Positions 1-15,285 of a DNA stretch of 16,387 nucleotides are shown here, in pieces. Source of the DNA: Candidatus Eiseniibacteriota bacterium. Its GTDB lineage: Bacteria > Eisenbacteria > RBG-16-71-46 > CAZAMP01. The stretch lies in the NCBI GenBank assembly GCA_965224245.1, contig CBDCYW010000017.1, positions 1 to 16,387 of the forward strand, read 5' to 3'. A program made the translations under genes and the position numbers. Positions within the stretch are counted from its first letter, which is position 1, and every line of letters begins with the position of its first letter. The notes under the pieces were generated by a model that saw nothing but the letters and a program-made list of their open reading frames with translations, searched no databases and was not told the DNA's origin.

Positions 1-1893
1 ATCGTCATCCGCTCGATGAGCGACGATCCTCGCCGTTGTTCAATCGATTGCGAATCGGTAGATGAGGACCCACGCCGAGGCTTCATCTTCGATTCCAACG
101 AGACTGCTGCGTCGATCCTCCGGGGAGTGACAATCACGCACGGCGCATCTGAGACTGCGCCTGGAGGTGGAGCGTTCCTGTGCATGCAGGCATCCCCCAC
201 GTTTCGCCGAGTGATCTTCGAGCAGAACTACAGTTACGACCGAGGCGGGGCAGGCACTCTCATAGAGTCGAACGCGCGATTCGATGAATGCGAGTTCGTC
301 GGCAATTTCTCTCTCGACGCTGGCGCCTCTCTATTCTCCTCGACAAGTGCGCTCGAACTGAACGCGTGCCGATTCCGGCAGAATAGTCAAGGGGACCTGG
401 CTGCTGGGATTGACGCATCTGGCGGCTCGCTGACTTTGCGACGCTGCGTGTTCGAGAACCAGTACGGGTCCGGAGTACTCGCCCAAGGGGTGAGTGCATT
501 GGTTCTGATCGACTGCAGATTCGTCGGAACCGGACGCACATACGGGGGTGGTGGCGCAGTAGGAGTTGAGACCTCGAGTGCCACCCTGGCCAACTGTATC
601 CTCGATCGGAACAGTGCTGGAACGGGCGGTGGCCTCTACGCTTCCGGCTCGAACGTCACGATGACGGACTGTAGTGTGCGGTCCAACGTGGGCGGTGGAG
701 TGTGGAGCCAGCAGTCGACTATCGAGCTGGAGCGCTGCTACATCGCGGGCAACCATCCCGTCAAGGACACACCGGGCGCGTTCTGGATCACCAACAGTCA
801 GGTGAGTGTCATCGACTGCGTCGTAGCGGACAACTATGGCTATTACTCGCCTGGGATCAGGGTCTCTGGTGCGACCAGCGATGTGACCATCCAGGGCACG
901 ACCATCGTGGGGAACTGGAGCAACGAACCTTCGAGTGCCGTGTCCATCGTCGATACCGACGTCACTATAGCGCGGACGATCATCGCCAATCATCTGACGG
1001 CGTCCGCTATCGAGTGTGAGGGAACGGGATCGGTTGAAGTCACATGCACGAACCTGGTCGGAAACACTACCGACTGGGATGGCTGTGTGAGCGGGCTCGA
1101 CGGGGTCGATGGCAACTTCTCACTGGACCCACTGTTCTGTGACGATACGGGCGACTACCGGTTGGAGACCGAGTCCCCCTGTCTGCCGGGAAACCACCCC
1201 GATGGTGCGGCATGTGATCTGATAGGCGGACTTTCCGAGGGCTGCGAGTCAGCGTTCCTGGATCTGGTTGCGGTGGGCTTCGTGTGCATGCCCGACACCG
1301 TGCTGTCGTGGAGTTCGAACCCAGATCAGCTGGTCATTGGCGGTATCGTCAGAAACGACGGTGATCTGTCGACCCACATCTTCGGCGTGACCGTTGACGT
1401 TGACGGCTGTGTGTCACCCAGAGGTCGGACAACGTTCGTCGGTCCGCTCGCTCCTGGCGAAGCCGATACGGTGTTCGTGGGGCCCTTTGGGGTACTACCG
1501 TCGGATTGCACGGCATCGATGTCCGTGGACATCGACGATTACGTTTCAGAGGCCGACGAGCTGAACAACGAGCTCATAGACGAGCCCGTGTGCACGGTAG
1601 TTGGCGCGCCGGGTGCGACGGCAAACTTGCCAGCTATCCAGATCGCGCCACGGCGAAACCCCATCTTCGGCGAATCTGTCGCTCTCGACTATGCCGGCAG
1701 GCCAGGTGTGGTTGTCGAAGTGATCGATGCTGCCGGTCGCCGCATTCGACGGTGGGAACCTAGGCTGAGTGTCGGCAGCCTGGTCTGGGATAGGCGGGAC
1801 ACTGCAGCTCGCTTGGTTGGGCCAGGTGTCTACTTCGTGAGGGCAATCGTGGGAACCGATAGAGCCGTTTCCAGAATAGTCATAGCCCGATAA
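1..1893 (+). CDS. Secreted right-handed beta-helix repeat protein with CARDB-like domain and C-terminal FlgD-Ig/T9SS-like sorting domain (5' truncated by window)
   Basis: The frame is open from base 1 (IVIRSMSDD...). It has parallel beta-helix repeats (CxFxxN..GGG), the motif GNFSLDPLFC...SPCLPGNHP...CDLIG, a CARDB-like segment (VRNDG...GPLAPGEADTV...VSEADELNN) and a terminal 'VIDAAGRRIR...WDRRDTAARLVGPGVYFVR'. Confidence 0.8.
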   Translation: MVIRSMSDDPRRCSIDCESVDEDPRRGFIFDSNETAASILRGVTITHGASETAPGGGAFLCMQASPTFRRVIFEQNYSYDRGGAGTLIESNARFDECEFVGNFSLDAGASLFSSTSALELNACRFRQNSQGDLAAGIDASGGSLTLRRCVFENQYGSGVLAQGVSALVLIDCRFVGTGRTYGGGGAVGVETSSATLANCILDRNSAGTGGGLYASGSNVTMTDCSVRSNVGGGVWSQQSTIELERCYIAGNHPVKDTPGAFWITNSQVSVIDCVVADNYGYYSPGIRVSGATSDVTIQGTTIVGNWSNEPSSAVSIVDTDVTIARTIIANHLTASAIECEGTGSVEVTCTNLVGNTTDWDGCVSGLDGVDGNFSLDPLFCDDTGDYRLETESPCLPGNHPDGAACDLIGGLSEGCESAFLDLVAVGFVCMPDTVLSWSSNPDQLVIGGIVRNDGDLSTHIFGVTVDVDGCVSPRGRTTFVGPLAPGEADTVFVGPFGVLPSDCTASMSVDIDDYVSEADELNNELIDEPVCTVVGAPGATANLPAIQIAPRRNPIFGESVALDYAGRPGVVVEVIDAAGRRIRRWEPRLSVGSLVWDRRDTAARLVGPGVYFVRAIVGTDRAVSRIVIAR

Positions 1894-1957
1894 CGCCTCG
1901 AACGCAGGGGCTTGGACGGTCGCTGACCTCGGGTCGACAGTCGAAACGGGGACCAGG

Positions 1958-4596
1958 ATGCATTCTGATAGGTTCTCCTTGATCGTGCTCGGGGCTGCAC
2001 TTGCCTGTAGGCCCTGCGCGGCATCGGCGATGTCTGGCGGCTGGAGTCCATTTGCAGGTGCTATTGGCCTCGATGATGAGGTGATTGCGATCGCCTCTAT
2101 GCCATTCCAGTACAGCGAACCGCACGCGCGAGCTGCGCTTGTCGTTGGCGGGGAATTCACCGCGATCGATGGCTCACCACCATCCTACTTGGCTCAATGG
2201 GACGATGGCTCTTGGTCCAGTCTGGGAGCTGGCGTCGATGCGCGTGTTCGCGCCCTAGCCTACTATCGTCGAGAGTTCATAGCGGCTGGCGACTTCATGA
2301 CCGCAGGCGGCACCAGCGTGGACCGAATCGCATCTTGGGACGGTCAGGACTGGAGCGCCCTCGGAGCCGGCATCAATGCCAGCGGGCGCGTCATGACGGT
2401 CTTCGACGACAACCTCGTCATCGGAGGCAACTTCACCCAGGCTGGCGGCGTTGCCGCGAACCACATCGCGCTATGGAATGGAGCGGGCTGGGGCAGCCTT
2501 GGCTCAGGGCTCAGCACTTCCCCGAACGATCTCGCGGTCTTTCAGTCCGAGCTGTACGCGGGCGGCGCCTTCACCGAGGCGGGAGGTATAACCGTCTCAC
2601 GATTGGCACGCTGGGACGGCTCGACATGGCGCGATGTCGGGGGCGGTACGAATGCTAGCCCGCGTGCGCTGCTCGTCTATGACGGTGCCCTCGTCGTCGC
2701 AGGCAATTTCTCATCGGTCGGCGGTGAGCCGATTCCGTTCATCGCGCGCTGGGACGGCACGTCATGGTCCTCTCTGGGCGGCGGCGTCAACGGCCAGGTT
2801 CACGCGCTTGCTCACTACCGAAACGACCTGATCGTTGGCGGCGAGTTCAGTCAAGCAGGCGGTGAGCCTGCTTCGCACATCGCGAGGTGGAACGGCGCGG
2901 AGTGGTCATCCATGGCGGACGGTTTCGACGATCGCGTCGGCGTGCTCTTTCCTCACAACGGTCACGTCTTTGCCGGCGGGGTTTTCACCACGGCCGGTGG
3001 CGTGCCCTCGCCGTACTTCGCGCAGTGGGGACGATCTGTCGGCCGACCCTGTTGTCTACGAAGTACAGCCTGCCGGTGATGGAGACTTCCCGACAATCCA
3101 GGCTGGCATCTTCGCCGTGGCGGACGGGGATACAATTGAACTGGCGGATGGCATCTTCCGCGGAGATGGGAACTGGGACCTAGATACGGTTCAGAAAGAG
3201 GTAACGATCCGCTCGAAGAGCGGTGTTCGGGAGCAGTGCGTGATTGACGGTGAAGGGAGTCATCGGGGCTTCTACTTGCACTCCGCCGAGGACTCCACCA
3301 CTGTAATCAGTGGCTTGACGATTCGGAACGGATTCGGGTCGAGACTTCCATTTGCGGTGGAAGGCGGCGGCGGGATCGCTGCGAACATCTCGTCTCCGCG
3401 GGTTCGTGGTTGTCTCATTGAGAACTGTGAGGCCACGTACGGTGGGGGAATCTATGTTGTGGACTTCAACTACTTCCGATTGGAGGACACGGTTATTCGA
3501 GGATGCACAGGAGGGGGGGTCGTGGCGGACAACGGCCTCTTTGACATGGTATCCAGCGTCGTGTCGCGGACTTCCGGCCACGGGATACAAATACAGAACG
3601 CTGTCAGACTGCGCGGGTGCACGATCGTCGACAACACGGGCGCTGGTGTCTATGCAACCGGCACATCGGCAGATATCGAACTGCGTGAGACCATCTTCGC
3701 GTCGAATGGAGTTGCCGCGGTCGTTGGTACGTTCTCGCTCCCGATCGTATTCTGCACGGATGTGTGGGGTCACGCGAGTGGTGACTGGATAGGCGCGCTC
3801 GCTGGATACGGCAGCATCAACGGCAATTTCTCTGCCGACCCGCTCTTCTGCGACGCACCAGCCAATGACCTAACACTAGAGTCCAGCTCACCGTGTCTAC
3901 CGGGGCAACACCCAAATGGTTATGACTGTGATCTCATCGGCGCACTCGGTCAGGGCTGTGAAGGTGCCCTCGCGAACCTAGCGCCGGCCGGTTTCGTTTG
4001 CCTCCCCGACTCGGCCACAGCATGGGCCGATGACCCCGACAGCCTCCGCATCGGTGCCATCGTCATCAACGACGGAACCCTCACGTCAGGCACCTTCGAC
4101 GTACGCATCGAGATCGAGGGCTGCGTCGGGTTCTGGGGCGACACGCAGGCGATCGGGCCGCTGAGCCCGGGAGAGGTGGACACCGTCTTTGCCGGGCCGT
4201 TTGCGGTCGAGCCCGAGCAATGCAGCGCGTCCGTCTTCGTGGACTACAACGATGACGAGGCGGAGTCATCGGAGCTGGACAACGACATCGTGGATGCGTC
4301 GGTGTGCACTGTCGTTGGGGTCCCGGGAGAGGGGAGCAACGCACCCCGGGCCTGGACTGCGTGGCCCAATCCATCACGCGGGAGCGTACGGTTTGGTGGC
4401 CCCTCACGTATCACCCAGGTAACAGTCTTCGATGTACACGGCCGTCGAGTGCGCGGGCTCAGTGCTCTGGACGGTGGCCAGGTGCGCTGGGATCGAGAGG
4501 ACAGATCGAGGGGGACGCGTGGCACCGGGAGTCTACTTCGCTCGTATCACGTCGTCCGCGGGTGAGGTAACCCTCCGCGTACTCTTGAGCGAATGA
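1958..4596 (+). CDS. Secreted multidomain protein (signal peptide, ~7-bladed beta-propeller, beta-helix, CARDB-like, FlgD-Ig-like tail); one gene split by two apparent +1 frameshifts at 3027-3030 and 4510-4514
   Basis: ORF 1958-3079 has a Sec-like signal (MHSDRFSLIVLGAALAC...ASA) and ~46-aa GGxFxxAGG...IAxWDG..W..LG repeats. Removing one G from G4 at 3027-3030 joins ...YFAQW to DDLSADPVVYEVQPAGDGDFPTIQ of ORF 2835-4565. Removing one G from G5 at 4510-4514 restores GRVAPGVYFARITSSAGEVTLRVLLSE-stop(4594-4596), matching the paralog's tail. Reconstructed length is 878 aa. Confidence 0.75.
2138..3028 (+). repeat. Intragenic ~138-bp (46-aa) tandem repeats, six complete plus a partial seventh (beta-propeller blades)
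   Basis: Repeated LxxGGxFTxAGG....IAxWDG..WSxLGxG.N..V.AL units in the translation. The N-terminal GWSPFAGAIGLDDEVIAI segment could supply the missing half of blade 7. Confidence 0.7.
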
Positions 4597-5937: not shown

Positions 5938-6056
5938 ATGTTTTGCCTGAGTCGCAACCAAGGATCGGCGAGATCGGGGCAGGCCAGCGCATGCTGGCGA
6001 ACGAGGGTACCCGGCGCACCCGCACCGGGCAAGTAGAACCGTCTGGAACGTGACTG

Positions 6057-6650
6057 TCAGCCTTTCAGTACCGCCCTCAACCGGTTCTGCAACGACCCCT
6101 GCTTGTTCCCGACCACGTCCCTCGGCCCGATGTGCTTCTCGCAGTACTGCTCGGCCGACTTCCCGATCGAGACCTCGAGCTTCTCCATCGGGATCACCTC
6201 CTCGGTCTCGGGCCGGCCCTTGACCGTGACCTTGAGCCCCTTCGAGACCTTGACGACGTCGAAGCTGACGCGCTCGGAGACGTTGGTGGCGCGGCCGCCG
6301 GTGAACTCGCACCGGACGCCGGCGTTCCGGCACGCGTCCCGGTAGGGGGCGAGGGCGGCCCGGTAGGCGTCCTTGGCCGCGGCGACGATGGTCCTCGCCT
6401 GCGCCTCCAGCGCCTCGGCCTCGGTCCTGGCCCGGGCGACGGCCGCCTCGGCATCGGTGACGGCGGCCCGGAGGGCGTTGAGGTCGGGCGTGTCGCCGCC
6501 GGTCGCGGCCCGTGTGCTCGTCTTCTTCGCGGGCACGGCCCCGGGGGCCCTCTTCGCCCGAGCCTTCGCCGTGCGGCCCGATTTCGCCCCGGTGCCGCCC
6601 TTGGTCGCCTTCGCCGCTGTCTTCCTCGGAGCCTTCTTCGTCGTCGCCAT
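6057..6650 (-). CDS. Hypothetical protein with histone-H1-like Lys/Ala-rich N-terminus and coiled coil (possible nucleoid-associated protein), 197 aa
   Basis: ATG at 6650 preceded by GGAGGA (6655-6660). The sequence begins MATTKKAPRKTAAKATKGG...AKKTSTR, followed by an Ala/Glu heptad helix and a globular C-terminus. Codon third positions are strongly G/C in this frame. Confidence 0.7.
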   Translation of the reverse strand: MATTKKAPRKTAAKATKGGTGAKSGRTAKARAKRAPGAVPAKKTSTRAATGGDTPDLNALRAAVTDAEAAVARARTEAEALEAQARTIVAAAKDAYRAALAPYRDACRNAGVRCEFTGGRATNVSERVSFDVVKVSKGLKVTVKGRPETEEVIPMEKLEVSIGKSAEQYCEKHIGPRDVVGNKQGSLQNRLRAVLKG

Positions 6651-6702
6651 CTCGTCCTCCTCGGCTGTGTTGCAGGCGTCGCGGGATGCGCGCCACTCCG
6701 AC

Positions 6703-6735
6703 ACATGCACGCTCGAGCCTGGCGAGGTCATCAAG
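6703..6735 (-). promoter_or_regulatory. Motif A copy 1 (CTTGAT-N15-GAGCG-N2-CATGT), putative promoter/operator of the histone-like gene
   Basis: The minus strand reads CTTGATGACCTCGCCAGGCTCGAGCGTGCATGT, 52 nt upstream of ATG 6650. It closely resembles the copy at 10941-10972. Confidence 0.55.
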
Positions 6736-6757
6736 TCATTTCAGGGGAATAAGTTAG

Positions 6758-6789
6758 CTTGATTTGGCGCCCATCGGAGCGAACCATGT
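6758..6789 (+). promoter_or_regulatory. Motif A copy 2 (CTTGAT-N13-GAGCG-N3-CATGT), back-to-back with copy 1 and pointing to the tyrosine recombinase
   Basis: The plus strand reads CTTGATTTGGCGCCCATCGGAGCGAACCATGT. It is separated from copy 1 by a 22-bp AT-richer spacer. Confidence 0.5.
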
Positions 6790-7069
6790 GGTGAGCGAAG
6801 GGGGCTGGAGAACTCCCTGCATCGCGGGGCCAAACACGGACGCTGGGAGCGGCGTGAGGCACTGATCGCCACGGCGAGCGGTTGGGCGAGGGAAGCGGCG
6901 ACATCCGGATACCACGACGCCCCCGACGACGCTCTCTGCCGCGCCGAGGGGGCGGGGTATCTAGTTCCCCACGCCGATGAGGTGATGCGGAAGCGAAGGT
7001 GCAGAGCGCTGATGCTTGGGGAACGCGGGGACAGTACCACACGTCGTCGCGCGAGCGAGTTAGGAGAGC

Positions 7070-7666
7070 GTGAGGATGCCATATCGTGCCCCCGAGACCA
7101 TGACCACCGCCGAGCAGCGACGGCTCCTCGACGTCAGCGCTGAGAGTCCGAGACCACGCGACCACGTGATGATCTCGCTCGCGCTGGGCACCGGGCTTCG
7201 GCTCGGCGAGCTGCTCGCGCTCGACGTCGGCGATGTGAGTCCCGACGGCGTCCACGTGCGCACACGCGTGAAGCTGCGCGTCGAGACGACCAAGGGCGCG
7301 CGCAAGGGCGAGGTGTTTCTGCCCGATCGGGTCGTCGAGAAGCTGACGCGGTTCCTGGCGTGGAAGTCGATGATGGGGGAGTCGCTCGATGGCGACGCGC
7401 CGTTGTTCATCTCATCGTGGGGGAGACGGTTGTCGGCGAGGCGGACGCAGATGATGTTTCATGGATGGCAGCGCAGAGCCGGTTTTGATCGACTGTACAA
7501 CTGGCACTGCACCAGGCATTCGGCTATTTCCAACGTCTACCGAGCGTCTCGGGACCTCTTCCTCGCCCAGCGGTTCGCTCGCCACGCGTCACCCCTCACC
7601 ACCATCATCTACACCCACGTATCGGATGAGGAGATGGCGGAGAGAGTGAAGGAGCTGCCGTGTTGA
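7070..7666 (+). CDS. Tyrosine recombinase/integrase, catalytic domain only (~197 aa)
   Basis: RDHVMISLALGTGLRLGEL (box I Arg), TKG (Lys), HCTRH (box II), ARHAS (His) and TTIIYTH (Tyr nucleophile) are all present. AGGAG precedes GTG 7070; an alternative start is ATG 7076. Confidence 0.9.
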   Translation: MRMPYRAPETMTTAEQRRLLDVSAESPRPRDHVMISLALGTGLRLGELLALDVGDVSPDGVHVRTRVKLRVETTKGARKGEVFLPDRVVEKLTRFLAWKSMMGESLDGDAPLFISSWGRRLSARRTQMMFHGWQRRAGFDRLYNWHCTRHSAISNVYRASRDLFLAQRFARHASPLTTIIYTHVSDEEMAERVKELPC

Positions 7667-7787: not shown

Positions 7788-8435
7788 CTACGGAATGACG
7801 TAGAGGAACACGGCAAAGAAGTGACAAATGCTGCCGCCGAGCACAAATACGTGCCAGATCGCATGATGGAACGGTCGTCGCGAGACGAAGAAGACGATGC
7901 CGAGCGTGTACGCGACACCGCCGGCCAGGAGCAAGGCGAGTCCAGCAGGCGCGAGTTCTGTCAGCAATGGCCGGGCAGCGCCGACGATCCCCCAGCCCAT
8001 CAACACGTAGAGCAGCAGCTGGAGGCGACGCGCACGACCGCGCGAAACGGCTTCCAGCACGATCCCCCCGATCGCGAGGCCCCAGACCACGGCGAAGAGG
8101 CTCCATCCCCAGCGCCCATCGAGCGTAATGAGAGCGAAGGGTGTGTAGGTACCCGCGATCAGCAGATAGATCGCGGAGTGGTCGAGAATGCCGAAGACCC
8201 GCTTGCCACGTCCAGACGGCAGCGCGTGATAGACCGTTGACGACGCATACAGGACGACCAGCGTGGCCCCGTAGATGGTGCAAGAGACCACGTCGATCGC
8301 GGAGCCCCTCCGAGCCGCAAACACGATCATGAGAACGAGCGCCGCGATCCCGATCAGCAAGCCGACGCCGTGAGTCAGGCTATGGGCCAGCTCCTCGGCG
8401 GCCGTGAACTTCTCGTCGGGATCTTTGGCAGGCAT
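7788..8435 (-). CDS. trhA: Haemolysin III / PAQR family membrane protein
   Basis: EELAHSLTHGVG, YASSTVYH, DHSAIYLLIAGTYTPF and HAIWHVFVLGGSICHF signatures, with about 7 hydrophobic segments. Confidence 0.92.
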   Translation of the reverse strand: MPAKDPDEKFTAAEELAHSLTHGVGLLIGIAALVLMIVFAARRGSAIDVVSCTIYGATLVVLYASSTVYHALPSGRGKRVFGILDHSAIYLLIAGTYTPFALITLDGRWGWSLFAVVWGLAIGGIVLEAVSRGRARRLQLLLYVLMGWGIVGAARPLLTELAPAGLALLLAGGVAYTLGIVFFVSRRPFHHAIWHVFVLGGSICHFFAVFLYVIP

Positions 8436-8533: not shown

Positions 8534-8863
8534 TCAGGGCAGGGCGCGGCGCTGGTCCGTCCACGAGATCGATCGCAGCGCGGCCCGAAGCCGGGTCTCC
8601 CCAACCACGATCGTCCCATCGAGCAGCCCCACCTGGATGTCCGGCGCCAGTCCCAGCAGCGCCGTGATCTGCGAGAGCCGCGCCCTCGACACCCCGGCGA
8701 CCCGAGCCACCTCGGCGAACGACTCCACACGCCCGTCGCGCACCATCTCGTCGAGCATGAGCGCCAGCGCCATGAGCCGGGCCGATCGGGGCACGGTGGG
8801 GACATCGGGTTCGGCGGCAGGGGCAGACTTGGGGCGAAACGTGGCGCGTATCGTCACGCTCAT
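8534..8863 (-). CDS. Small HTH-like protein coupled to the serine recombinase
   Basis: 'ALALMLDEMVRDG...SFAEVARVAGVSRARLSQITALLGLAPDIQ' is HTH-like. There is an ATGA overlap with the recombinase stop (8860-8863) and GGAGG upstream. Confidence 0.75.
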   Translation of the reverse strand: MSVTIRATFRPKSAPAAEPDVPTVPRSARLMALALMLDEMVRDGRVESFAEVARVAGVSRARLSQITALLGLAPDIQVGLLDGTIVVGETRLRAALRSISWTDQRRALP

Positions 8864-10410
8864 GGGCCACCTCCGGGCAGAAGCGAGGCCGCTTCCTCGC
8901 GAAACGTAATCGCCACCTCGCCTGACGCCCCGTCGTACTCGACACGCTCGACGAGCAGCGCCAGCGCCTCGTGCTTCTCACGCGCCGTCAGACGCGCCCA
9001 CAATGCGTCGAACTGCGACATGGCTTCCGACACGCCCGTGCGGTTGATCGCGCGGCCACGGACGGCTGTGAGCGTCTCCTGGGCCACACGGCGGCGGTGC
9101 TCGGTGGTCTTGACCCGTCGCGTGATCTCGGTGATCCGATCGTCGTCGGCATCGCCACGGGCGCGGTTGAGTTCTCCACGCATCTGCTTGATCTCGGCGT
9201 CGAGCAGGCGGACGTCGTTGGCCAGTTCCTTCGCGCGGGCTTTCGCCTGGGCCTTCGCCGACGCGACGGTGGCGGCGATGAGCTTCGGGTCGCTGCCGAT
9301 GCCCCGGATCTGGTCGATGACGAACGCTTCGATCTCGCCAGCGGCGACGGGAGCGGTGGCGCAGACGTGGGCGCCTTCCTTCTGGCGGCGGACGCAGGTG
9401 TAGTACTTGTATCGGCGCCTCCCCTTCGTCGTGGCGGTCCGGGTCATCGCGGCGTCGCAGGCGGAGCAGCGGAGGAGGCCGGCCAGGAGCGCCGTGCGCT
9501 TCGTCCTCGGGGCCGAGCCGTTGATGACGCGGTTCCCCTGGAGACACGCCTGGACCGCCTCGAACGTCTCGACGTCCACGATGGCCTCGTGTTCAGCCTC
9601 CACGACCTCGTCACCGGCCCGGATGCGGCCGACGTAGAGCACGTTCGTCAGGAGCTTCTGGAGGGTCGACTTGCCGAAGTCGTTGCCGCCGTAGGTCTTG
9701 CCTGCCGCTGAGGTCCAGCGCTTCGTGGTCCAGCCTCGACGTCGCAACTCAGCGACGGTGGCCGAGAGGGATCGTGTCGCCAGGTACATCCCGAAGACCG
9801 CACGGACCCGCTCGGCCTCGCCCTCGTTCACGACGAGGCGACCACCGCCGTCCGCGATGTCGTAGCCGAGCACTGGAACACCGCCCGTCCACTGGCCCCG
9901 ACGACGCGCAGCCCGCATCTTGTCCCGAGTCCGCTCGCAGATCATGGACCTTTCGAATTCGGAGAAACTGAAGAGCAGGTTCATCGTCAGCTTGCCCATC
10001 GAACTCGTCGTGTCGAGCTGCTGGGTCACGCTGACGAGCCCGACGCCATGACGGTCGAGCGTCTCCATGATCCGGACGAAGTCGGCGAGGCTGCGGCTCA
10101 GCCGGTCGATGCGGTGGACGACGATGCGGTCCACTTCGCCGGCCTCGACGTCTCGCAGCAGCCGCTGGAACGCCGGCCGGCGCGTGTCGCCGCCGCTGAA
10201 GCCTCGGTCCTCGTAGACGTCGGGGAGCGCGGTCCATCCGGCGTGGCGCTGGCTGGCGACGTAGGCCCGGACGGCCTCCTGCTGGGCTTCCGTCGAGCTG
10301 AAAGCCTGGTCGGGGGCGTCGTCGACAGAGACGCGGGTGTAGACGGCGCACCGGACAACAGCGGGTTCCACGCCCTTCCCGTTGCGCGATGTCGTCGACA
10401 GGACGGCCAT
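8860..10410 (-). CDS. Large serine recombinase (integrase), 516 aa
   Basis: Catalytic 'AVYTRVS', 'YEDRGFSGG..RRPAFQRLL', 'DRLSRS', recombinase domain, zinc ribbon (LLRCSACD...YYTC...C) and coiled coil. ATG 10410 has GAGGGA upstream; the longer ORF start at 10629 overlaps DUF2924. Confidence 0.93.
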   Translation of the reverse strand: MAVLSTTSRNGKGVEPAVVRCAVYTRVSVDDAPDQAFSSTEAQQEAVRAYVASQRHAGWTALPDVYEDRGFSGGDTRRPAFQRLLRDVEAGEVDRIVVHRIDRLSRSLADFVRIMETLDRHGVGLVSVTQQLDTTSSMGKLTMNLLFSFSEFERSMICERTRDKMRAARRRGQWTGGVPVLGYDIADGGGRLVVNEGEAERVRAVFGMYLATRSLSATVAELRRRGWTTKRWTSAAGKTYGGNDFGKSTLQKLLTNVLYVGRIRAGDEVVEAEHEAIVDVETFEAVQACLQGNRVINGSAPRTKRTALLAGLLRCSACDAAMTRTATTKGRRRYKYYTCVRRQKEGAHVCATAPVAAGEIEAFVIDQIRGIGSDPKLIAATVASAKAQAKARAKELANDVRLLDAEIKQMRGELNRARGDADDDRITEITRRVKTTEHRRRVAQETLTAVRGRAINRTGVSEAMSQFDALWARLTAREKHEALALLVERVEYDGASGEVAITFREEAASLLPGGGP

Positions 10411-10412
10411 CG

Positions 10413-10907
10413 TCAGTCCCTCGCTCCCTTCAGACCCCAGAAGGTCTTCCCGTTCCAGTTCACGCCCGTCGCCGCCCGCGCCGCCCCACTGAGCGAGCGG
10501 TACACGTCGCCGTCGAACTCGAAGCCGTGCTCGAGGACGCGGCACTCCAGGACGCGGCCTCTGTACTCGCGACGCAGCACCGTGCCGGCGGGGGGCAGGT
10601 TGAGATCGTGTGATGGCAGGCGCTTGCATGTGCGACGAGTCGTATGGGCGACTGCCTCGGTGCCAGACGGCGGACGCGTCCGCAAGAACGCGAAGTCCGC
10701 CAGCTCCCTGGCTCTCGCCATGACCGTCTCAGGGAAGCCGCTGAACCCCTCGGCATCAGCCTGGAGCTTCCAGGCGATCCGCTTCACCAAGTGCGCCTTG
10801 CTGTGCGACCGCGTCTCCTCGCCCCACACTTTCCGGTAGCGTTGACGAAGCTCACGAACCGTCATGTCCCGAAGCGTCTCCAGCTCCTGGTTGATATTCA
10901 AGCTCAC
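10413..10907 (-). CDS. DUF2924 domain-containing protein
   Basis: 'LVKRIAWKLQ...GTVLRREYRG....RVLEHGFEFDG..YRSLSGAARAATGVNWNGKTFWGL' is the DUF2924 signature. GTG start with GAGGAGGA RBS, in the usual position just upstream of a serine recombinase. Confidence 0.85.
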   Translation of the reverse strand: MSLNINQELETLRDMTVRELRQRYRKVWGEETRSHSKAHLVKRIAWKLQADAEGFSGFPETVMARARELADFAFLRTRPPSGTEAVAHTTRRTCKRLPSHDLNLPPAGTVLRREYRGRVLECRVLEHGFEFDGDVYRSLSGAARAATGVNWNGKTFWGLKGARD

Positions 10908-10972: not shown

Positions 10973-11074
10973 TGGATCGTCGGGGGACTCGCCGGTAGTC
11001 AAGCGGAGGTAGGCGCGGGCCAGCAGAGTCGCGAGCGTCGTGTGATCCAGGACATCGCTCATGCTGACCATGCG

Positions 11075-11326
11075 CTATCGCGTCGACGAGGCCGCGCTGG
11101 GTGCGATCGTCGGTCGCGGGGTATCGACGGACTGGATGGCCCGTTTCACACAAGCCGCGACGTCTTGCCGAAGACAGGCGCGGAGCCGAACAGCCAGCCG
11201 AAACGACGGGTCGCTTGAATCGCAGTCGCGCGTCGCGATCGCCAGGATCGGGACGAGTCGCTGCCAGATCGCATCGGTGAGGTCTGTCGTCAAGCTGTGC
11301 GGGAAATCGGATCTGCACGCGGTCAT
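11075..11326 (-). CDS. Small hypothetical protein (83 aa)
   Basis: ATGA overlap with the stop of the sigma-like gene (11323-11326), and it fills the gap before DUF2924. No recognised motif. Confidence 0.4.
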   Translation of the reverse strand: MTACRSDFPHSLTTDLTDAIWQRLVPILAIATRDCDSSDPSFRLAVRLRACLRQDVAACVKRAIQSVDTPRPTIAPSAASSTR

Positions 11327-13023
11327 GGCTGTCGTCCGCGAAACATCCACTCGTAGCCTGGCTCGGACATGAGAGCATGCTGGAGCTTTACGCGCGCCCG
11401 CTTTATCCGCTGTCCTACGGCCTGTTGAGAAACACCAAGGCGCTCCGCGATAGTGGCTTGCGACTGGCCGTCGCAGAAGTGTGCCACGAGGACGTCCCGT
11501 TCCTTATCCGTGCAGAATCGAGAGGCGAGATCGTTCAGTGACTCAGCCAGTTCCGGCTGCATGGGGTGGTCCGTGTCACGGAGATCAAACTCGCGACTGG
11601 CGTCGCGTGCTTCGCCGCCAAGCTCTCGATCGTCCGAGGCCACCAAGAGAAGCCACACAGGGTAGAAGTTCAGAAACAGGTGATATCGACGTCGAAGCTC
11701 CGCTGCAGCGGTGGCAGTTCCTCGCTTGAGAACTGCGGTGGAGAGCCAGAGGGCAAAGGTTTTGTAGTCGGTGTTGGCTACGAAAGACCGAATGACTGGG
11801 TCCAAAAGCGGGATGACGTTGCCGAGGGACGGCTGCCGGAAGTACATGAGCTGAAACAGTCGCCGTTCCGCTCGGCTGAGCTCCTTCCGGACCTTGCGGT
11901 AGATTTGTCTGGCTATCGCATCGTGGAACGCGAGCTCGCGGTTTCTGGCATCGAGCGAAATCAGCTTCAATGACGGTGCGAGGTCTCCATGGCGTGAGAC
12001 GATGAGATAGAGCGCTTCGAAGTACATCAGCGGGTCAAGCTGTGCGAGGGCTCCCTCGATCACGGCAACTGCGTGTGCCGGATCGTCGTGATCGAGGGCT
12101 TCCGGATCGCGTTCGATGATGACGACGGCCTCCCGGATCGCGTCATCATCGAGCAAACTCCGATAGTACTCAGCAGTATCTACGAGAAGGTCTGTCGCAG
12201 CATCCGGATCAACGTTACGTGCGATGAGTTTCGCAAAGCGTTCTGGTAGAGCGTTGCGGAGCGTCTGCGGGCGGATGTCTACACGCGTGAGTATCCGATC
12301 CAGCCGATCGAGAATCGCTGTGGCACGGTCTCCGAAGTCGGTCCGAGGGGTACTTCTGGACTCCGCAATCAGCTCGCGAGCCGCTCTCCCGTAGACCTCA
12401 TCGGTGTCGACCTCCACCCGTTCCATGACTTCGGAGATGGACAGCCGGATGCCTGCGTCGCGTCTTGCTTCGCGGACGGCACGTCCCGCAAGCTCAAGCT
12501 GCGTGTCGAAGAGCTGGCTATCCAGTCTCTCAAAGGTCTCGTAGCACTCCTCGACGACTTCGATATGTCGGAAGATCGGGACTCGTAGTCGGATCTCCGG
12601 GTCGTCGCGTCGAGCCCTCGCGAGCAACACGTTACCGTCGTCTGTCACCGGTCCGCCGAGTTCGGCGATCTGCTCCCAAAGAGAAGCTCCGGTAGAGCGA
12701 GAGAGCCTCAATGCCGCGCAGAGCGTCGGCGAATGCAGCAGCGTTGCTGGCTCGAACATCCGCTCGCGCAGGGGGACGACCCGCGATCCCAGCGACGCAA
12801 GAAACGGATCAGCCATCTCTAGGTCCACGGTTCCACGGCGCCGCATGTGCCGCAGAACGGCCGTCTCGACCGGGCATCTGGCGGACTCAGCGTCCGGCAT
12901 GATGAGGCGGACGGTTTCCGCAGCGGAGTCGCCGCAGGCCGAGAGTGCGATGGGCAATGCGTCCGCTTCGATGTAGCCGATGCATGACGTGCTGTCCGGG
13001 TCGTCGAATCTGAGCCGTTCCAT
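11323..13023 (-). CDS. Large protein (566 aa) with C-terminal sigma70 region-4 HTH
   Basis: C-terminal 'CTDKERDVLVAHFCDGQSQATIAERLGVSQQAVGQRIKRARVKLQHAL'. ATG 13023 is preceded by GGGAGGCAGG. The ~480-aa N-terminal part is helical-looking and unrecognised. Confidence 0.75.
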   Translation of the reverse strand: MERLRFDDPDSTSCIGYIEADALPIALSACGDSAAETVRLIMPDAESARCPVETAVLRHMRRRGTVDLEMADPFLASLGSRVVPLRERMFEPATLLHSPTLCAALRLSRSTGASLWEQIAELGGPVTDDGNVLLARARRDDPEIRLRVPIFRHIEVVEECYETFERLDSQLFDTQLELAGRAVREARRDAGIRLSISEVMERVEVDTDEVYGRAARELIAESRSTPRTDFGDRATAILDRLDRILTRVDIRPQTLRNALPERFAKLIARNVDPDAATDLLVDTAEYYRSLLDDDAIREAVVIIERDPEALDHDDPAHAVAVIEGALAQLDPLMYFEALYLIVSRHGDLAPSLKLISLDARNRELAFHDAIARQIYRKVRKELSRAERRLFQLMYFRQPSLGNVIPLLDPVIRSFVANTDYKTFALWLSTAVLKRGTATAAAELRRRYHLFLNFYPVWLLLVASDDRELGGEARDASREFDLRDTDHPMQPELAESLNDLASRFCTDKERDVLVAHFCDGQSQATIAERLGVSQQAVGQRIKRARVKLQHALMSEPGYEWMFRGRQP

Positions 13024-13067
13024 CACCTGCCTCCCGGTTCGGGCCGCGCGTGGAGGGTCCACGCTCT

Positions 13068-13101
13068 ACCCGGTACGGACGCCACCGGTCCATCCTACAA
13101 G
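13068..13101 (-). promoter_or_regulatory. Motif B leftward copy (CTTGTA-N9-GGTG-N2-GTCCGTACCGGGT)
   Basis: The minus strand reads CTTGTAGGATGGACCGGTGGCGTCCGTACCGGGT and ends 44 nt before ATG 13023. Confidence 0.6.
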
Positions 13102-13197
13102 CCCCGGGATCGTTTTTCTTTCCAGCCGGCCTAACGGCCTGTCCTGAAGCAACTTAGGGTCCCGTTCCGTAGCCCGCGACCTTTCTGCCTTTCGCGA

Positions 13198-13231
13198 CTT
13201 GTAAATCGCGCTGGTGCTGTCCGTACCGGGT
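13198..13231 (+). promoter_or_regulatory. Motif B rightward copy (CTTGTA-N9-GGTG-N2-GTCCGTACCGGGT)
   Basis: The plus strand reads CTTGTAAATCGCGCTGGTGCTGTCCGTACCGGGT and ends 44 nt before ATG 13276. Confidence 0.6.
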
Positions 13232-13345
13232 GAGGGCCACATGGTCCGTGGCCACTCAATAGCAAGGAGGCAGGCATGCCGGCGGCACCCCCGCCAGCGG
13301 ACAGGTCCCGAATGGTGGGGTGGCCGCCGCGCGAGGCGGGTCACG

Positions 13346-13936
13346 GTGAGTGAGCCATGGACACCGACGAGCCCTTACACACGCGTACCCCACGAGGTCC
13401 TCGAAGTGATCGCAAGGGGCTGGTTCACGGGCTCCCAGACCCGCGTCCTGCTCGCGATTGCGCGGCACTCGTGGGGGTTCCATCAAGTCGCGAGCAGGTG
13501 TGGAGTCCGGCAGATCGCCGCCACGTGCCAGATGCACCCGAGCACGGTGAGCCGGGTCATCCGGAGTCTCGAAGAACGCCGCGTTGTCCAGAAGGAGCAT
13601 GCGATGCGAGGGCAGCAAGCGTCGATACGGATCGTCGAGCAGGTGCGATTGTGGCAACCGCCAGCACCTCGGAAGCCCAGGAAACTGCCGCAGTCGGTCT
13701 GGAAGCCGAAGATGGAGGATGGCGAGAGTGTTGACCTGGGAGTCAACACTTCGCCCGCTGGGAGTGTTGACCTGGGAGTCAACAGGGGTGTTGACCTGGA
13801 AGTCAACGGTAGTGTTGACCTGGGAGTCAACACTACAAAGATATATAGAGATACAAAAGATAGGCGGGTTCGTGGGAGGCCGAACGAGGAGTCGCCCGCC
13901 CCGGAGGTCGAAGGGGACGCGGAGGTGGTGCCATGA
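13346..13936 (+). CDS. Phage replication initiator, lambda-O-like N-terminal winged-helix domain
   Basis: 'YTRVPHEVLEVIA...FTGSQTRVLLAIARHSWGF...QIAATCQMHPSTVSRVIRSLEERRVV' resembles the Phage_rep_O N-terminus. It contains iterons and has an ATGA overlap with dnaB. The start is either GTG 13346 or ATG 13276 via a frameshift. Confidence 0.78.
   Translation: MSEPWTPTSPYTRVPHEVLEVIARGWFTGSQTRVLLAIARHSWGFHQVASRCGVRQIAATCQMHPSTVSRVIRSLEERRVVQKEHAMRGQQASIRIVEQVRLWQPPAPRKPRKLPQSVWKPKMEDGESVDLGVNTSPAGSVDLGVNRGVDLEVNGSVDLGVNTTKIYRDTKDRRVRGRPNEESPAPEVEGDAEVVP
13728..13862. repeat. Putative replication origin: four 20-bp palindromic iterons plus AT-rich tract
   Basis: GTGTTGACCTGG(G/A)AGTCAAC starts at 13728, 13764, 13788 and 13812, followed by ACTACAAAGATATATAGAGATACAAAAGATA (13832-13862). 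Confidence 0.8.
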
Positions 13937-15285
13937 CCCGTCAGGACCTCCTGTGTGATCTCGACGCCGAACGGGCGCTCCTTGGCGCCATGTTCCTCGC
14001 CGGCGTGGATATCGATGGACTGGAGGACTTCAACGCCACCTGGTTCCACTATGAAAGCCACCGAGCCATCTACGATGCGATCTGCTCTCTCGAAGCTGAT
14101 GGCTACCCGATCGACTTGTCGCTCGTGAAAGGGCGTCTCGAACAGTCCGGGAAGATCGATCTGGTCGGGGGTGTGAGCTATCTCGTAGACCTGGTGGACA
14201 GCATCGGCTGCTCGACGGCCACAGCCCCAGCCATGATCGAGCGCGTGCGCAACGCCGCCGTTCGTCGCCTGGTCCGATCCGCGTGTGACTGGGCATCCGT
14301 CGAGGTCGTGGACTTCACGTCTCCGGTCAACGAGACCATCGATGGACTGATGACGCGCCTGGTGGAGGTCGGCGCTCCACGAGAGCGCGGACTCGTCCTG
14401 GCCGGCGAAGTCGTACCGCAAGCGATCAAGGAACTCGACGATCCGGTGCTCGCCAACGCGGACGTCGTTCTCAGCGAGCTCGGAGACGTCGATCGGCAGA
14501 TCGGCGGCTGGCGCCCTGGCGAGCTGATCGTGATCGGTGCCCGCCCGTCGGTGGGCAAGACGGCGCTTCAGCTCGGGTTCGCGGCAATGCCCGCCGTCCG
14601 GCACGGGCTACCGGTCGCCTTCTTCAGCCTGGAGATGCCGACAAAGTCGATCCTGTACCGGGTCGCTGCTCAGCTCTCCGGGGTCGACCTCCAGCGTGCC
14701 ATTGGGGGGCGGCTCGACCAGGCGGAGCGACGTTCCTTCGGAGACGCGCTGAGCGCGCTCAAGACGGTTCCGCTCTACATCGCCGACGCGAGCGCTCCGC
14801 GGGTGTCCGAGATCCGGCGACATGCGAAGCGCCTCAAGGCTCGTCACGGGCTCCGGCTGATCGTGGTCGACTATCTCCAGCTCGTGGCCGGCCAGCCGAA
14901 CGCCCAGACTCGTGAGCAGGAAGTCGGCGGAGCATCGCGTGAACTCAAAGCGCTGGCGAAGGACCTGGGTGTACCGGTGATCGTCGGAGCGCAACTGAAC
15001 CGGCAGGTCGAGAACCGCGCCTCGTCTCGTCCCGTGCTAGCGGATCTTCGTGAGTCGGGTGCGATCGAGCAGAACGCCGACATCGTGTGCTTCATCCACC
15101 GACCCCACAAGGACAAGGAGAAGGCGACCGTTGACGAGCTTCGAAAGACGACGCTGATCGTGGCCAAGCATCGCAACGGTCCGACCGGGGATGTGCCACT
15201 CGTGTTCGAGCCGACGTGTGCGCGTTTCTCGGGACTGTCGCCGGCGACAGCGCCGATTGCTCGGAGGCGACGCAATGCCGCCTAG
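13933..15285 (+). CDS. dnaB: Replicative DNA helicase (element-encoded DnaB)
   Basis: N-terminal 'DAERALLGAM...HRAIYDAI', Walker A GARPSVGKT, FFSLEM, IVVDYLQL, QLNR, LRESGAIEQNAD and KHRNGPTG. Confidence 0.95.
   Translation: MTRQDLLCDLDAERALLGAMFLAGVDIDGLEDFNATWFHYESHRAIYDAICSLEADGYPIDLSLVKGRLEQSGKIDLVGGVSYLVDLVDSIGCSTATAPAMIERVRNAAVRRLVRSACDWASVEVVDFTSPVNETIDGLMTRLVEVGAPRERGLVLAGEVVPQAIKELDDPVLANADVVLSELGDVDRQIGGWRPGELIVIGARPSVGKTALQLGFAAMPAVRHGLPVAFFSLEMPTKSILYRVAAQLSGVDLQRAIGGRLDQAERRSFGDALSALKTVPLYIADASAPRVSEIRRHAKRLKARHGLRLIVVDYLQLVAGQPNAQTREQEVGGASRELKALAKDLGVPVIVGAQLNRQVENRASSRPVLADLRESGAIEQNADIVCFIHRPHKDKEKATVDELRKTTLIVAKHRNGPTGDVPLVFEPTCARFSGLSPATAPIARRRRNAA

Follow-up and report, generated by a model that had tools for sequence, protein, structure and literature searches.

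Twin outward-facing 34-nt motifs between a sigma-region-4 protein gene and a lambda-like replication operon in a prophage-like element of Candidatus Eiseniibacteriota

Introduction

The 16,387-nt contig CBDCYW010000017.1 of a Candidatus Eiseniibacteriota genome, which was analysed over its whole length (here the window, or C18; 64% G+C), raises the question of what two mirrored DNA signals in one intergenic gap control. The gap is 252 nt long and separates the gene of a 566-amino-acid (566-aa) protein on the minus strand from replication genes on the plus strand. Two copies of a 34-nt motif face outward in it. It had been proposed from the sequence alone (the original prediction) that both are promoters for one dedicated factor, plausibly the 566-aa protein, which would turn on its own gene and the replication operon together. 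The observation is more than chance and concerns the control region of a private regulatory module. A bidirectional control region of a mosaic, prophage-like integrative element is the best explanation of the gap, and the twin signals most likely form the private on/off switch of that element.

Results

The twin arms and their leaders

Both bipartite motifs were found exactly where they had been reported, and the pattern matched twice in the window and never in 200 dinucleotide shuffles of it. The pair is non-random and directional. A 13-mer is identical between both arms, which together form a 39-nt inverted repeat (72% complementary, 86 nt between). The elements of the two arms are listed below; C22 is a second contig of the assembly, which carries the same arrangement.

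13068..13101, minus strand: minus arm, 34-nt motif CTTGTA-N9-GGTG-N2-GTCCGTACCGGGT, facing the 566-aa gene; two mismatches in the C22 counterpart
13198..13231, plus strand: plus arm, 34-nt motif CTTGTA-N9-GGTG-N2-GTCCGTACCGGGT, facing a short upstream open reading frame and the rep operon; no mismatch at specified positions in the C22 counterpart
13048..13064, minus strand: leader hairpin GCGTGGA-CCC-TCCACGC, beginning 4 nt past the motif; in C22 the stem is kept and the loop is 1 nt longer
13235..13253, plus strand: leader hairpin GGCCAC-N7-GTGGCC, beginning 4 nt past the motif; in C22 the stem is kept and the loop differs
13026..13034, minus strand: Shine-Dalgarno-like GGAGGCAGG before ATG 13023
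13266..13274, plus strand: Shine-Dalgarno-like GGAGGCAGG before ATG 13276
13102..13197, no strand: 96-nt centre separating the arms, weakly conserved (against C22, 41 of 97 alignment columns differ) outside the island TGAAnCAACTTA at 13145-13157

The hairpins behind both motifs were present as described, a repeat search recovered the shared GGAGGCAGG on both sides, and the ATG stood 44 nt past the motif in each direction (13023 and 13276). ATG 13023 is the start of the 566-aa gene; the role implied for ATG 13276 had to be revised (see below). The centre contains a sequence like the promoters of extracytoplasmic function (ECF) sigma factors, TGAAGC-N17-CGTA, at 13145-13172 on the plus strand, upstream of the plus arm, and this sequence includes the conserved island. 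Within the assembly, the island TGAA(A/G)CAACTTA was confined to C18 and C22. A degenerate third CCGTA box was seen at 13167-13171.

Conservation of the arms and linkage to the 566-aa gene

The assembly consists of one 6.45-Mb contig (69% G+C) and 26 small contigs of lower G+C, 6.9 Mb in total. It contains about ten diverged mosaic relatives of the element, with recombinases 77-87% identical and modules exchanged among them. The relatives lie on C1 (about 6.098-6.117 Mb), C6, C9, C10, C11, C15, C20, C22 and C23, mostly small contigs of low G+C; they may represent many elements that co-reside, or variants of a single prophage locus in the population.

C22 was the sole relative that shared window positions 11030-13302; both arms, with 0 and 2 mismatches, and a paralogue of the 566-aa gene at 77% identity stand there in the same arrangement. 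On its right side C22 carries another replication set (Zn-ribbon ORF, AAA_24, DUF669, ERCC4 and Prim-Pol) and no rep-dnaB. C9 carries rep, dnaB and the methylase gene from window position 13349 on (rep 67%, dnaB 77% identity); the module upstream of them is another one, and C9 was found to lack both the 566-aa gene and the arm motif. Since C22 has the gene and the arms with other cargo and C9 has rep-dnaB without both, the arms accompany the 566-aa gene and are not tied to the replication genes. The border of the module lies inside the leader open reading frame described below. This co-inheritance (n=2) supports a link between the arms and the 566-aa protein.

Differences between C18 and C22 were distributed unevenly across the region:

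Specified motif blocks: 2/46 positions differ
N9 and N2 spacers: 5/22 positions differ
Minus leader: 3/45 positions differ
Plus hairpin: 3/22 positions differ
Centre: 41/97 positions differ
13254-13275: 11/22 positions differ

The two 566-aa genes differed by 126 synonymous-only and 124 non-synonymous codon changes in 560, about 0.3 per synonymous site. The comparison supports the view that the arm pair is selectively conserved.

The exact motif was found nowhere outside the module. A search of all 6.9 Mb of the assembly for CTTGTA-N15-GTCCGTAC, allowing at most 2 mismatches, gave 18 matches against 15 for the reversed control, and 0 mismatches occurred in the four arms only. Another 205 genomes of the phylum gave just single matches with 1-2 mismatches, at about the count of the reversed control, so that exact copies were confined to this genome. 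The arm motif had no match in IMG/VR, and no comparable mirrored pair was present in the sister elements. An exact copy of the 13-mer on C21 was set aside as chance; it stood in a coding-like context, without CTTGTA. Upstream of the 796-aa primase gene of the sister element on C23 there is a 58-nt inverted repeat (L054:2937-3117; 71% complementary) rich in GGGTAGGT units, which is possibly another origin or control region.

The search for homologue loci used a 12-sequence alignment. Distant homologues of the 566-aa protein (at most 34% identity) were found at 2 genome and 7 metagenome loci and at none in IMG/VR. They stand in other contexts (HTH-IrrE, MazF, transposase, DUF1573), and the CTTGTA...CCGTAC motif was not found at these loci, which have upstream repeats of their own. 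Upstream of the homologue in a Gemmataceae metagenome-assembled genome (MAG), L043:2397-2591 holds a perfect 23-nt direct repeat in two copies and a 15-nt inverted pair separated by 115 nt, and at L042 there is a 14-nt direct repeat. These repeats are possibly the binding sites of the respective homologues.

Promoter-like features of the arms

Upstream of 55 tRNAs, 16 host promoters were identified, and a matrix was trained on them. They had the canonical form TTGACA-N16-18-TAnnnT, eleven with a spacer of 18 nt, four with 17 nt and one with 16 nt. No host sigma-A-type promoter was found in 13000-13300, where the best matrix score was 3.3; training promoters scored 17-22 and random 300-nt windows had a median of 2.3. 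The arms themselves scored -2.1 and -4.4, and a generic promoter scan of the gap found none. A non-housekeeping factor is plausible because the gap lacks a promoter of the host sigma-A type.

The geometry of the arms is promoter-like, with a 6-nt block (CTTGTA), a 17-nt gap and then CCGTAC/CGTA. The positions after CTTGTA vary (AAT, GGA, ATC, GGC), and TGTAAn occurs in the plus arms only. With a -10 element at CCGTAC, transcription would begin roughly 7 nt further along, where the leader hairpins start. These hairpins differ in sequence between the arms and have position and size in common; we infer that they would be stabilising stem-loops at the 5' ends of the transcripts, which gives a coherent picture. 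Two further promoter types were dropped on inspection by eye: a sigma-54 promoter, as the -12 GC is missing, and a MerR-type promoter, as the dyad described below is not centred in a 19-bp spacer.

The 566-aa protein

The 566-aa protein carries a clear region-4 domain of sigma-70 factors by profile and predicted fold. Pfam matched PF04545 at 6.1e-11 and PF08281 at 2e-10, and TIGR02937 scored 48.8 bits, above its cut-off of 42.9; NF005385, 'positive control sigma-like factor', was matched at E 1.4e-5, below its cut-off. In the AlphaFold model (predicted local distance difference test, pLDDT, 86.5; predicted template modelling score, pTM, 0.75), residues 490-556 superposed on region 4 of SigR with Z 9.8 and a root-mean-square deviation of 2.2 A over 65 residues, and Z was 8-9.8 to SigR, SigD, WhiG, SigF, CnrH and SigL. 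The recognition-helix stretch GVSQQAVGQRIKRAR is identical in the C18 and C22 paralogues. Pfam found region 4 in 13 of 22 homologues. A PDB profile search gave matches that cover just region 4 and its preceding linker, and a Foldseek search with the whole model gave many sigma factors, weakly (E 0.1-0.5). As modelled, the protein is a large helical protein with a sigma-4-type DNA-binding end.

The protein is a near-orphan. A word-indexed search of a 5.8-billion set returned 2 matches, with the C22 paralogue as the only relative. An exhaustive search of 1.84 billion representative proteins gave 91 matches at E <=0.001 and 44 at E <=1e-10; all but the paralogue were at most 34% identical and most were 560-650 aa long. 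The conserved core of the family spans residues ~350-554. A hypothetical protein of a Planctomycetota MAG was the single named member. There was no match in the phage collection and one weak match, to a Bacillus plasmid, in the plasmid collection; the protein and one homologue were absent from the ESM Atlas. Pfam detected no HTH_3/S24-type repressor features in the window proteins, and PADLOC reported nothing relevant. The literature, as far as our searches returned it, held no description of the family or of a twin-cassette design.

Sister elements carry small sigma genes (Sigma70_r2/ECF) between their recombinase and replication modules, so element-encoded transcription specificity is a trait of the element family and an analogous role is conceivable for the 566-aa protein. 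Small divergent sigma factors were seen just upstream of the replication genes on C9 (L051:3269-4012, minus), C1 (L052:3744-4376, plus) and C6 (L056:5833-6420, minus).

The leader open reading frame and the start of rep

The ATG at 13276 had by implication been taken as the rep start, which does not hold: it is in frame 1 and opens an upstream open reading frame (uORF) of 25 codons that ends at TGA 13351-13353, and the Phage_rep_O match lies in frame 2. The Pfam match belongs to the frame-2 open reading frame (ORF) 13214-13936 and begins at its residue 55. Similarity to the C9 Rep homologue begins, in both DNA and protein, at about GTG 13346, and for that reason the uORF stop is placed in overlap with the rep start (GTGAGTGA).

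13276..13353, plus strand: 25-codon uORF (MPAAPPPADRSRMVGWPPREAGHGE), stop overlapping the rep start (GTGAGTGA); a 10-codon counterpart stands at the same position in C22
13346..13936, plus strand: Phage O-like replication initiator, rep (PF04492, TIGR01610, PHROG replication initiation O-like), with the GTG 13346 start placed by the C9 homologue

A fold of the leader RNA with pairing between 13244-13258 and 13347-13362 was predicted (-75 kcal/mol, z -3.9; none of 200 shuffles was as stable). Such a fold would tie translation of rep to that of the leader ORF. The whole-leader fold was not kept in C22, where the cargo differs (z 0.22 vs -3.91). A plausible GAGG 9 nt upstream of rep is a candidate for a ribosome-binding site of its own. 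The leader ORF may be a translated, stalling-prone leader peptide coupled to rep. It could also be a frame-shifted N-terminal extension of rep, because C9 Rep has an in-frame N-terminal extension of similar composition. A proline run (APPPAD) was noted in the 25-codon ORF; the 10-codon C22 counterpart ends in RPPD-stop, and a 3-nt indel between the two keeps the frame.

A dyad inside the arms

Each arm also contains a 5-bp dyad, CYGGT-N9-ACCGG, of which the original prediction made no mention.

13070..13088, minus strand: 5-bp dyad or hairpin CCGGT-N9-ACCGG inside the minus arm
13211..13229, plus strand: 5-bp dyad or hairpin CTGGT-N9-ACCGG inside the plus arm

Across the four arms of C18 and C22, pairing is kept in 20 of 20 stem cells. 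The sole two mismatches of the C22 minus arm are partner positions that still pair (G-C to U-G), and another stem pair varies on one side (C-G/U-G). Covariation over four sequences is no more than suggestive. A cmscan of 12800-13500 against Rfam at E <=1 gave just a chance match to MEG3_2 (18.6 bits against a gathering score of 60).

Discussion

A proposed mechanism and the points against it

The reading that we favour, at a probability of roughly 0.45, is that of twin non-canonical promoter-leader cassettes controlled by the 566-aa protein of the module. Each arm would be a complete outward-facing expression cassette. It would begin with a non-housekeeping promoter made of the -35-like CTTGTA, 17 nt and the -10-like CCGTAC/CGTA, and behind it would come a stem-loop, right at the 5' end of the transcript, and then an ATG preceded by a strong ribosome-binding site. 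The 566-aa protein would be expressed from the leftward cassette, and probably the DUF2924 and serine-recombinase genes too. The rightward cassette would express the 25-codon leader ORF, translationally coupled to the lambda-O-like initiator, whose gene holds its own putative iteron origin and is followed by DnaB. A single factor specific to the module would read or gate both cassettes. The 566-aa protein is the likeliest candidate and would act through its C-terminal sigma-region-4 helix-turn-helix; synthesis of the 566-aa protein and replication would thereby be switched together.

Several points weigh against this reading. Promoter activity and start sites are deduced from the DNA sequence. 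The resemblance to alternative or ECF-sigma promoters, on which the original prediction relied, holds for CGTA and the spacing, which are present in all four arms; it is just partial, because the conserved -35-like block lacks the ECF-defining AAC. Conservation between C18 and C22 does not single out the motif blocks on the minus side, since the whole minus leader is equally conserved (3/45), and the linkage argument stands at n=2 because there are just two copies of the module, both in one assembly. The dyad, in which one double change looks compensatory, would be less expected of a bare promoter than of an RNA hairpin or a dimer operator. The 566-aa gene also sits in the usual repressor slot of temperate elements. 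Concerning the protein itself, Pfam found Sigma70_r2 neither in the 566-aa protein nor in any of its 22 homologues (0/22), hhalign to three sister sigma factors aligned region 4 alone, and residues 340-488 modelled separately (pLDDT 87.9) gave no sigma match (best Foldseek E 2.2; best VIA Z 6.1, to long-helix proteins). The idea of the adjacent protein as dedicated factor thus keeps its region 4, its module linkage and the missing sigma-A promoter, and is weakened by a region 2 that went undetected by sequence or fold. For this reason we do not file the protein as a sigma factor, and we treat 'dedicated sigma' and 'positive feedback' as hypotheses.

A bolder version would make the ~600-aa family a new mobile-element sigma-like factor, in which region 4 was kept and region 2 was replaced by an unrelated helical module (YR..R..LT..ERR.F.LMY ... 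RRWRAYLRFYPYW). It would steer host RNA polymerase to two private mirror-image promoters, as a self-amplifying switch for its own gene, the recombinase operon and the lambda-like replicon at once; sister elements would use ordinary small sigma factors for the same task. We consider this improbable.

Alternative explanations

The unusual regulator in the repressor slot could instead be a repressor. As a maintenance repressor analogous to cI or ImmR, the 566-aa protein would bind as an oligomer to CYGGT-N9-ACCGG of each arm, silence the replication operon and limit its own synthesis, and the arms would be operators over weak promoters read by host polymerase. The regulator gene adjoins the recombinase operon and is divergent from the replication genes, gene and sites move jointly as an exchangeable module like immunity regions, and the dyad of each arm covers the putative -10. 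The undetected region 2 agrees with this, as does the occurrence of region-4-like helix-turn-helix folds in repressors such as KorA (PF16509 E 0.0011; 5clv Z 7.0). However, there is no detectable host-type promoter on which a repressor could act, the HTH_3/S24-type features are absent by Pfam, and the single double change in the dyad breaks the symmetry of the DNA. The motif is also strongly asymmetric: conservation is highest in the distal CTTGTA and in the 9-nt 'spacer' between the dyad halves, and a symmetric dimer operator does not account for this. Repression is possible and worth keeping in view, though doubtful. The same dyad could act in RNA. Lambda has boxA/boxB nut sites on its two divergent early transcripts, and here transcripts starting in the 96-nt centre would carry CUUGUA and a hairpin with a conserved loop (CYGGU-GNNGUCCGU-ACCGG) as a nut-like signal or a translational operator, bound by a factor encoded by the element or the host. 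The pairing of 20/20 stem cells in four arms, with a two-sided change in one pair (G-C to U-G) and a one-sided change in another (C-G to U-G), fits this explanation, as the two mismatches of the C22 minus arm fall at exactly these partner positions. The conserved loop, the second hairpin of variable sequence at a fixed distance, and the ECF-like TGAA(A/G)C-N16/17-CGT on the plus strand of the centre, with its -35 part kept in C22, fit it too. On the other side, there are just four sequences, and the double change could be chance (roughly estimated at a few percent; as many such pairs arose in 96 of 500 shuffles). The centre shows no recognisable leftward promoter, no Rfam family matched, and the whole-leader fold differs between C18 and C22 (z -3.91 and 0.22). 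We regard signals of this kind as unlikely, though still in contention.

Inversion of the segment 13068-13231 by the nearby serine recombinase, with the arms as recombination sites and a promoter in the centre redirected by each flip, is the least probable explanation and a very remote one. Inverted repeats with a 13-nt identical core do flank 138 nt, a large serine recombinase gene lies 2.4 kb off, and the candidate promoter in the centre points one way only. The centre has the same orientation in 2/2 assembled copies (C18 and C22), however, and inversion would need neither bipartite arms with variable spacers nor their constant distance to ribosome-binding sites beyond the segment. The integrase-type recombinase also occurs in about nine sister elements that have no arms. 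Three DNA sequencing runs were inspected as contigs; those over the region show no inversion joint, at a depth of about 2, which gives this result little weight. One run contig spans 12000-13094 and ends inside the minus arm, and a 151-nt contig runs from 13245 into the C22 version.

Comparison with known systems

In the lambda switch the order is cI, PRM/OR/PR and cro, followed by O and P. The gap occupies the corresponding slot, as had been suggested: it matches the position of cI and PRM-OR-PR in lambdoid phages, and the rightward operon has a lambda-like O with internal iterons. As in lambda, the regulator gene lies on the integrase side and is divergent from an early operon with an O-type initiator and a candidate in-gene iteron origin, and the regulator together with the cis sites makes up a module that can be exchanged within a family of mosaic elements. 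Unlike lambda, the element has no HTH_3/S24 repressor, a 25-codon uORF in place of a cro-like first gene, no set of three palindromic operators (the two arms were the only repeats found) and no sigma-A-type promoters, and its regulator is the 566-aa protein with a sigma-region-4 domain.

Autoregulated ECF or group-4 sigma factors and sigma-like activators such as Xpf of PBSX offer a second comparison. The 566-aa protein resembles them in its C-terminal region-4 domain and in the bipartite promoter-like motif with a CGTA -10-like block before its own gene, and sister elements have real small sigma genes in the same slot. It differs in that no region 2 was detected, the -35-like block of the arms lacks AAC, and about 480 residues of helical domains of no assigned family precede region 4. 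N-terminal extensions of ECF sigma factors are described as rare and short (PMC7826278). No anti-sigma gene was recognised here, unlike in ECF systems.

A further parallel concerns the leader ORF. Translation of some plasmid replication initiators is coupled to that of a leader peptide, as in tap-repA of R1 and repY-repZ of IncB/I plasmids. Similarly, the short leader ORF here has a strong ribosome-binding site and ends a few bases past the start codon of the initiator (GTGAGTGA), and the predicted leader fold pairs with the rep start region. In contrast to those systems, neither an antisense RNA nor a pseudoknot was identified, C22 does not keep the fold, and rep has a plausible GAGG of its own. 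In ICEBs1, ImmR, a small HTH_3 repressor with the partner protease ImmA, controls the divergent promoters PimmR and Pxis. The present element shares with it a regulator and recombinase operon divergent from a replication operon and, as proposed here, one protein on both promoters; it has no ImmR- or ImmA-like protein.

The design is a new form of the familiar divergent early control region, and its interest comes mainly from an uncharacterised regulator family and the missing housekeeping promoters. If the arms are promoters served by the 566-aa protein, a temperate element in a barely studied phylum (Eisenbacteria) would be switched by positive, factor-specific transcription and not by a repressor pair of the cI/Cro type, and the gap would give a first functional handle on this protein family. 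The system is compact, one gene and a 252-nt gap, and could be used as a self-contained module for bidirectional expression if it turns out orthogonal to host sigma-A. If the 566-aa protein is a repressor, the locus would be an ordinary immunity region with an unusual repressor.

Gene layout and other features of the element

The remaining genes around the gap were arranged as follows:

11323..13023, minus strand: 566-aa protein gene, start ATG 13023; C-terminal sigma-70 region-4 domain at residues ~489-556, the rest helical and of no assigned family
10413..10907, minus strand: DUF2924 gene, same strand as the 566-aa gene and downstream of it
8860..10350, minus strand: large serine recombinase gene, ORF open up to 10629
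13933..15285, plus strand: DnaB-type helicase gene, start overlapping the rep stop
13728..13866, no strand: candidate origin inside rep, four iterons (~GTGTTGACCTGGGAGTCAACA, ~21 nt each) and an AT-rich stretch

Small ORFs are also present on the minus strand downstream of the gap, and the plus strand carries a D12-class methyltransferase gene in addition. The rep gene matched PF04492 at E 4.6e-12 (Pfam) and TIGR01610 at E 6.2e-11 (42.6 bits, cut-off 45.5). The iterons lie at 13728-13833 and the AT-rich stretch at 13835-13866, so that an O-type initiator N-terminal domain, in-gene iterons and an AT-rich stretch, all features of a lambda-type replication module, are present. The lambda origin, inside gene O, has the same layout as that in rep. 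Each iteron of ~21 nt is an inverted repeat, TGTTGAC-N6-GTCAACA.

Further to the left, window positions 6000-6800 reach 76% G+C and are repeated at 72-94% identity at many sites on C3, C10, C11, C23 and C1. This stretch adjoins a fragment of a tyrosine recombinase (198 aa; 7070-7666) and a HlyIII-family gene (7788-8435). The left end (16-4565) encodes two large beta-helix/CARDB proteins and a DUF5122 beta-propeller protein, followed by an HNH-like gene and a UDG-superfamily gene. These left-end genes may encode tail-fibre or surface proteins of the element, or they may be host genes.

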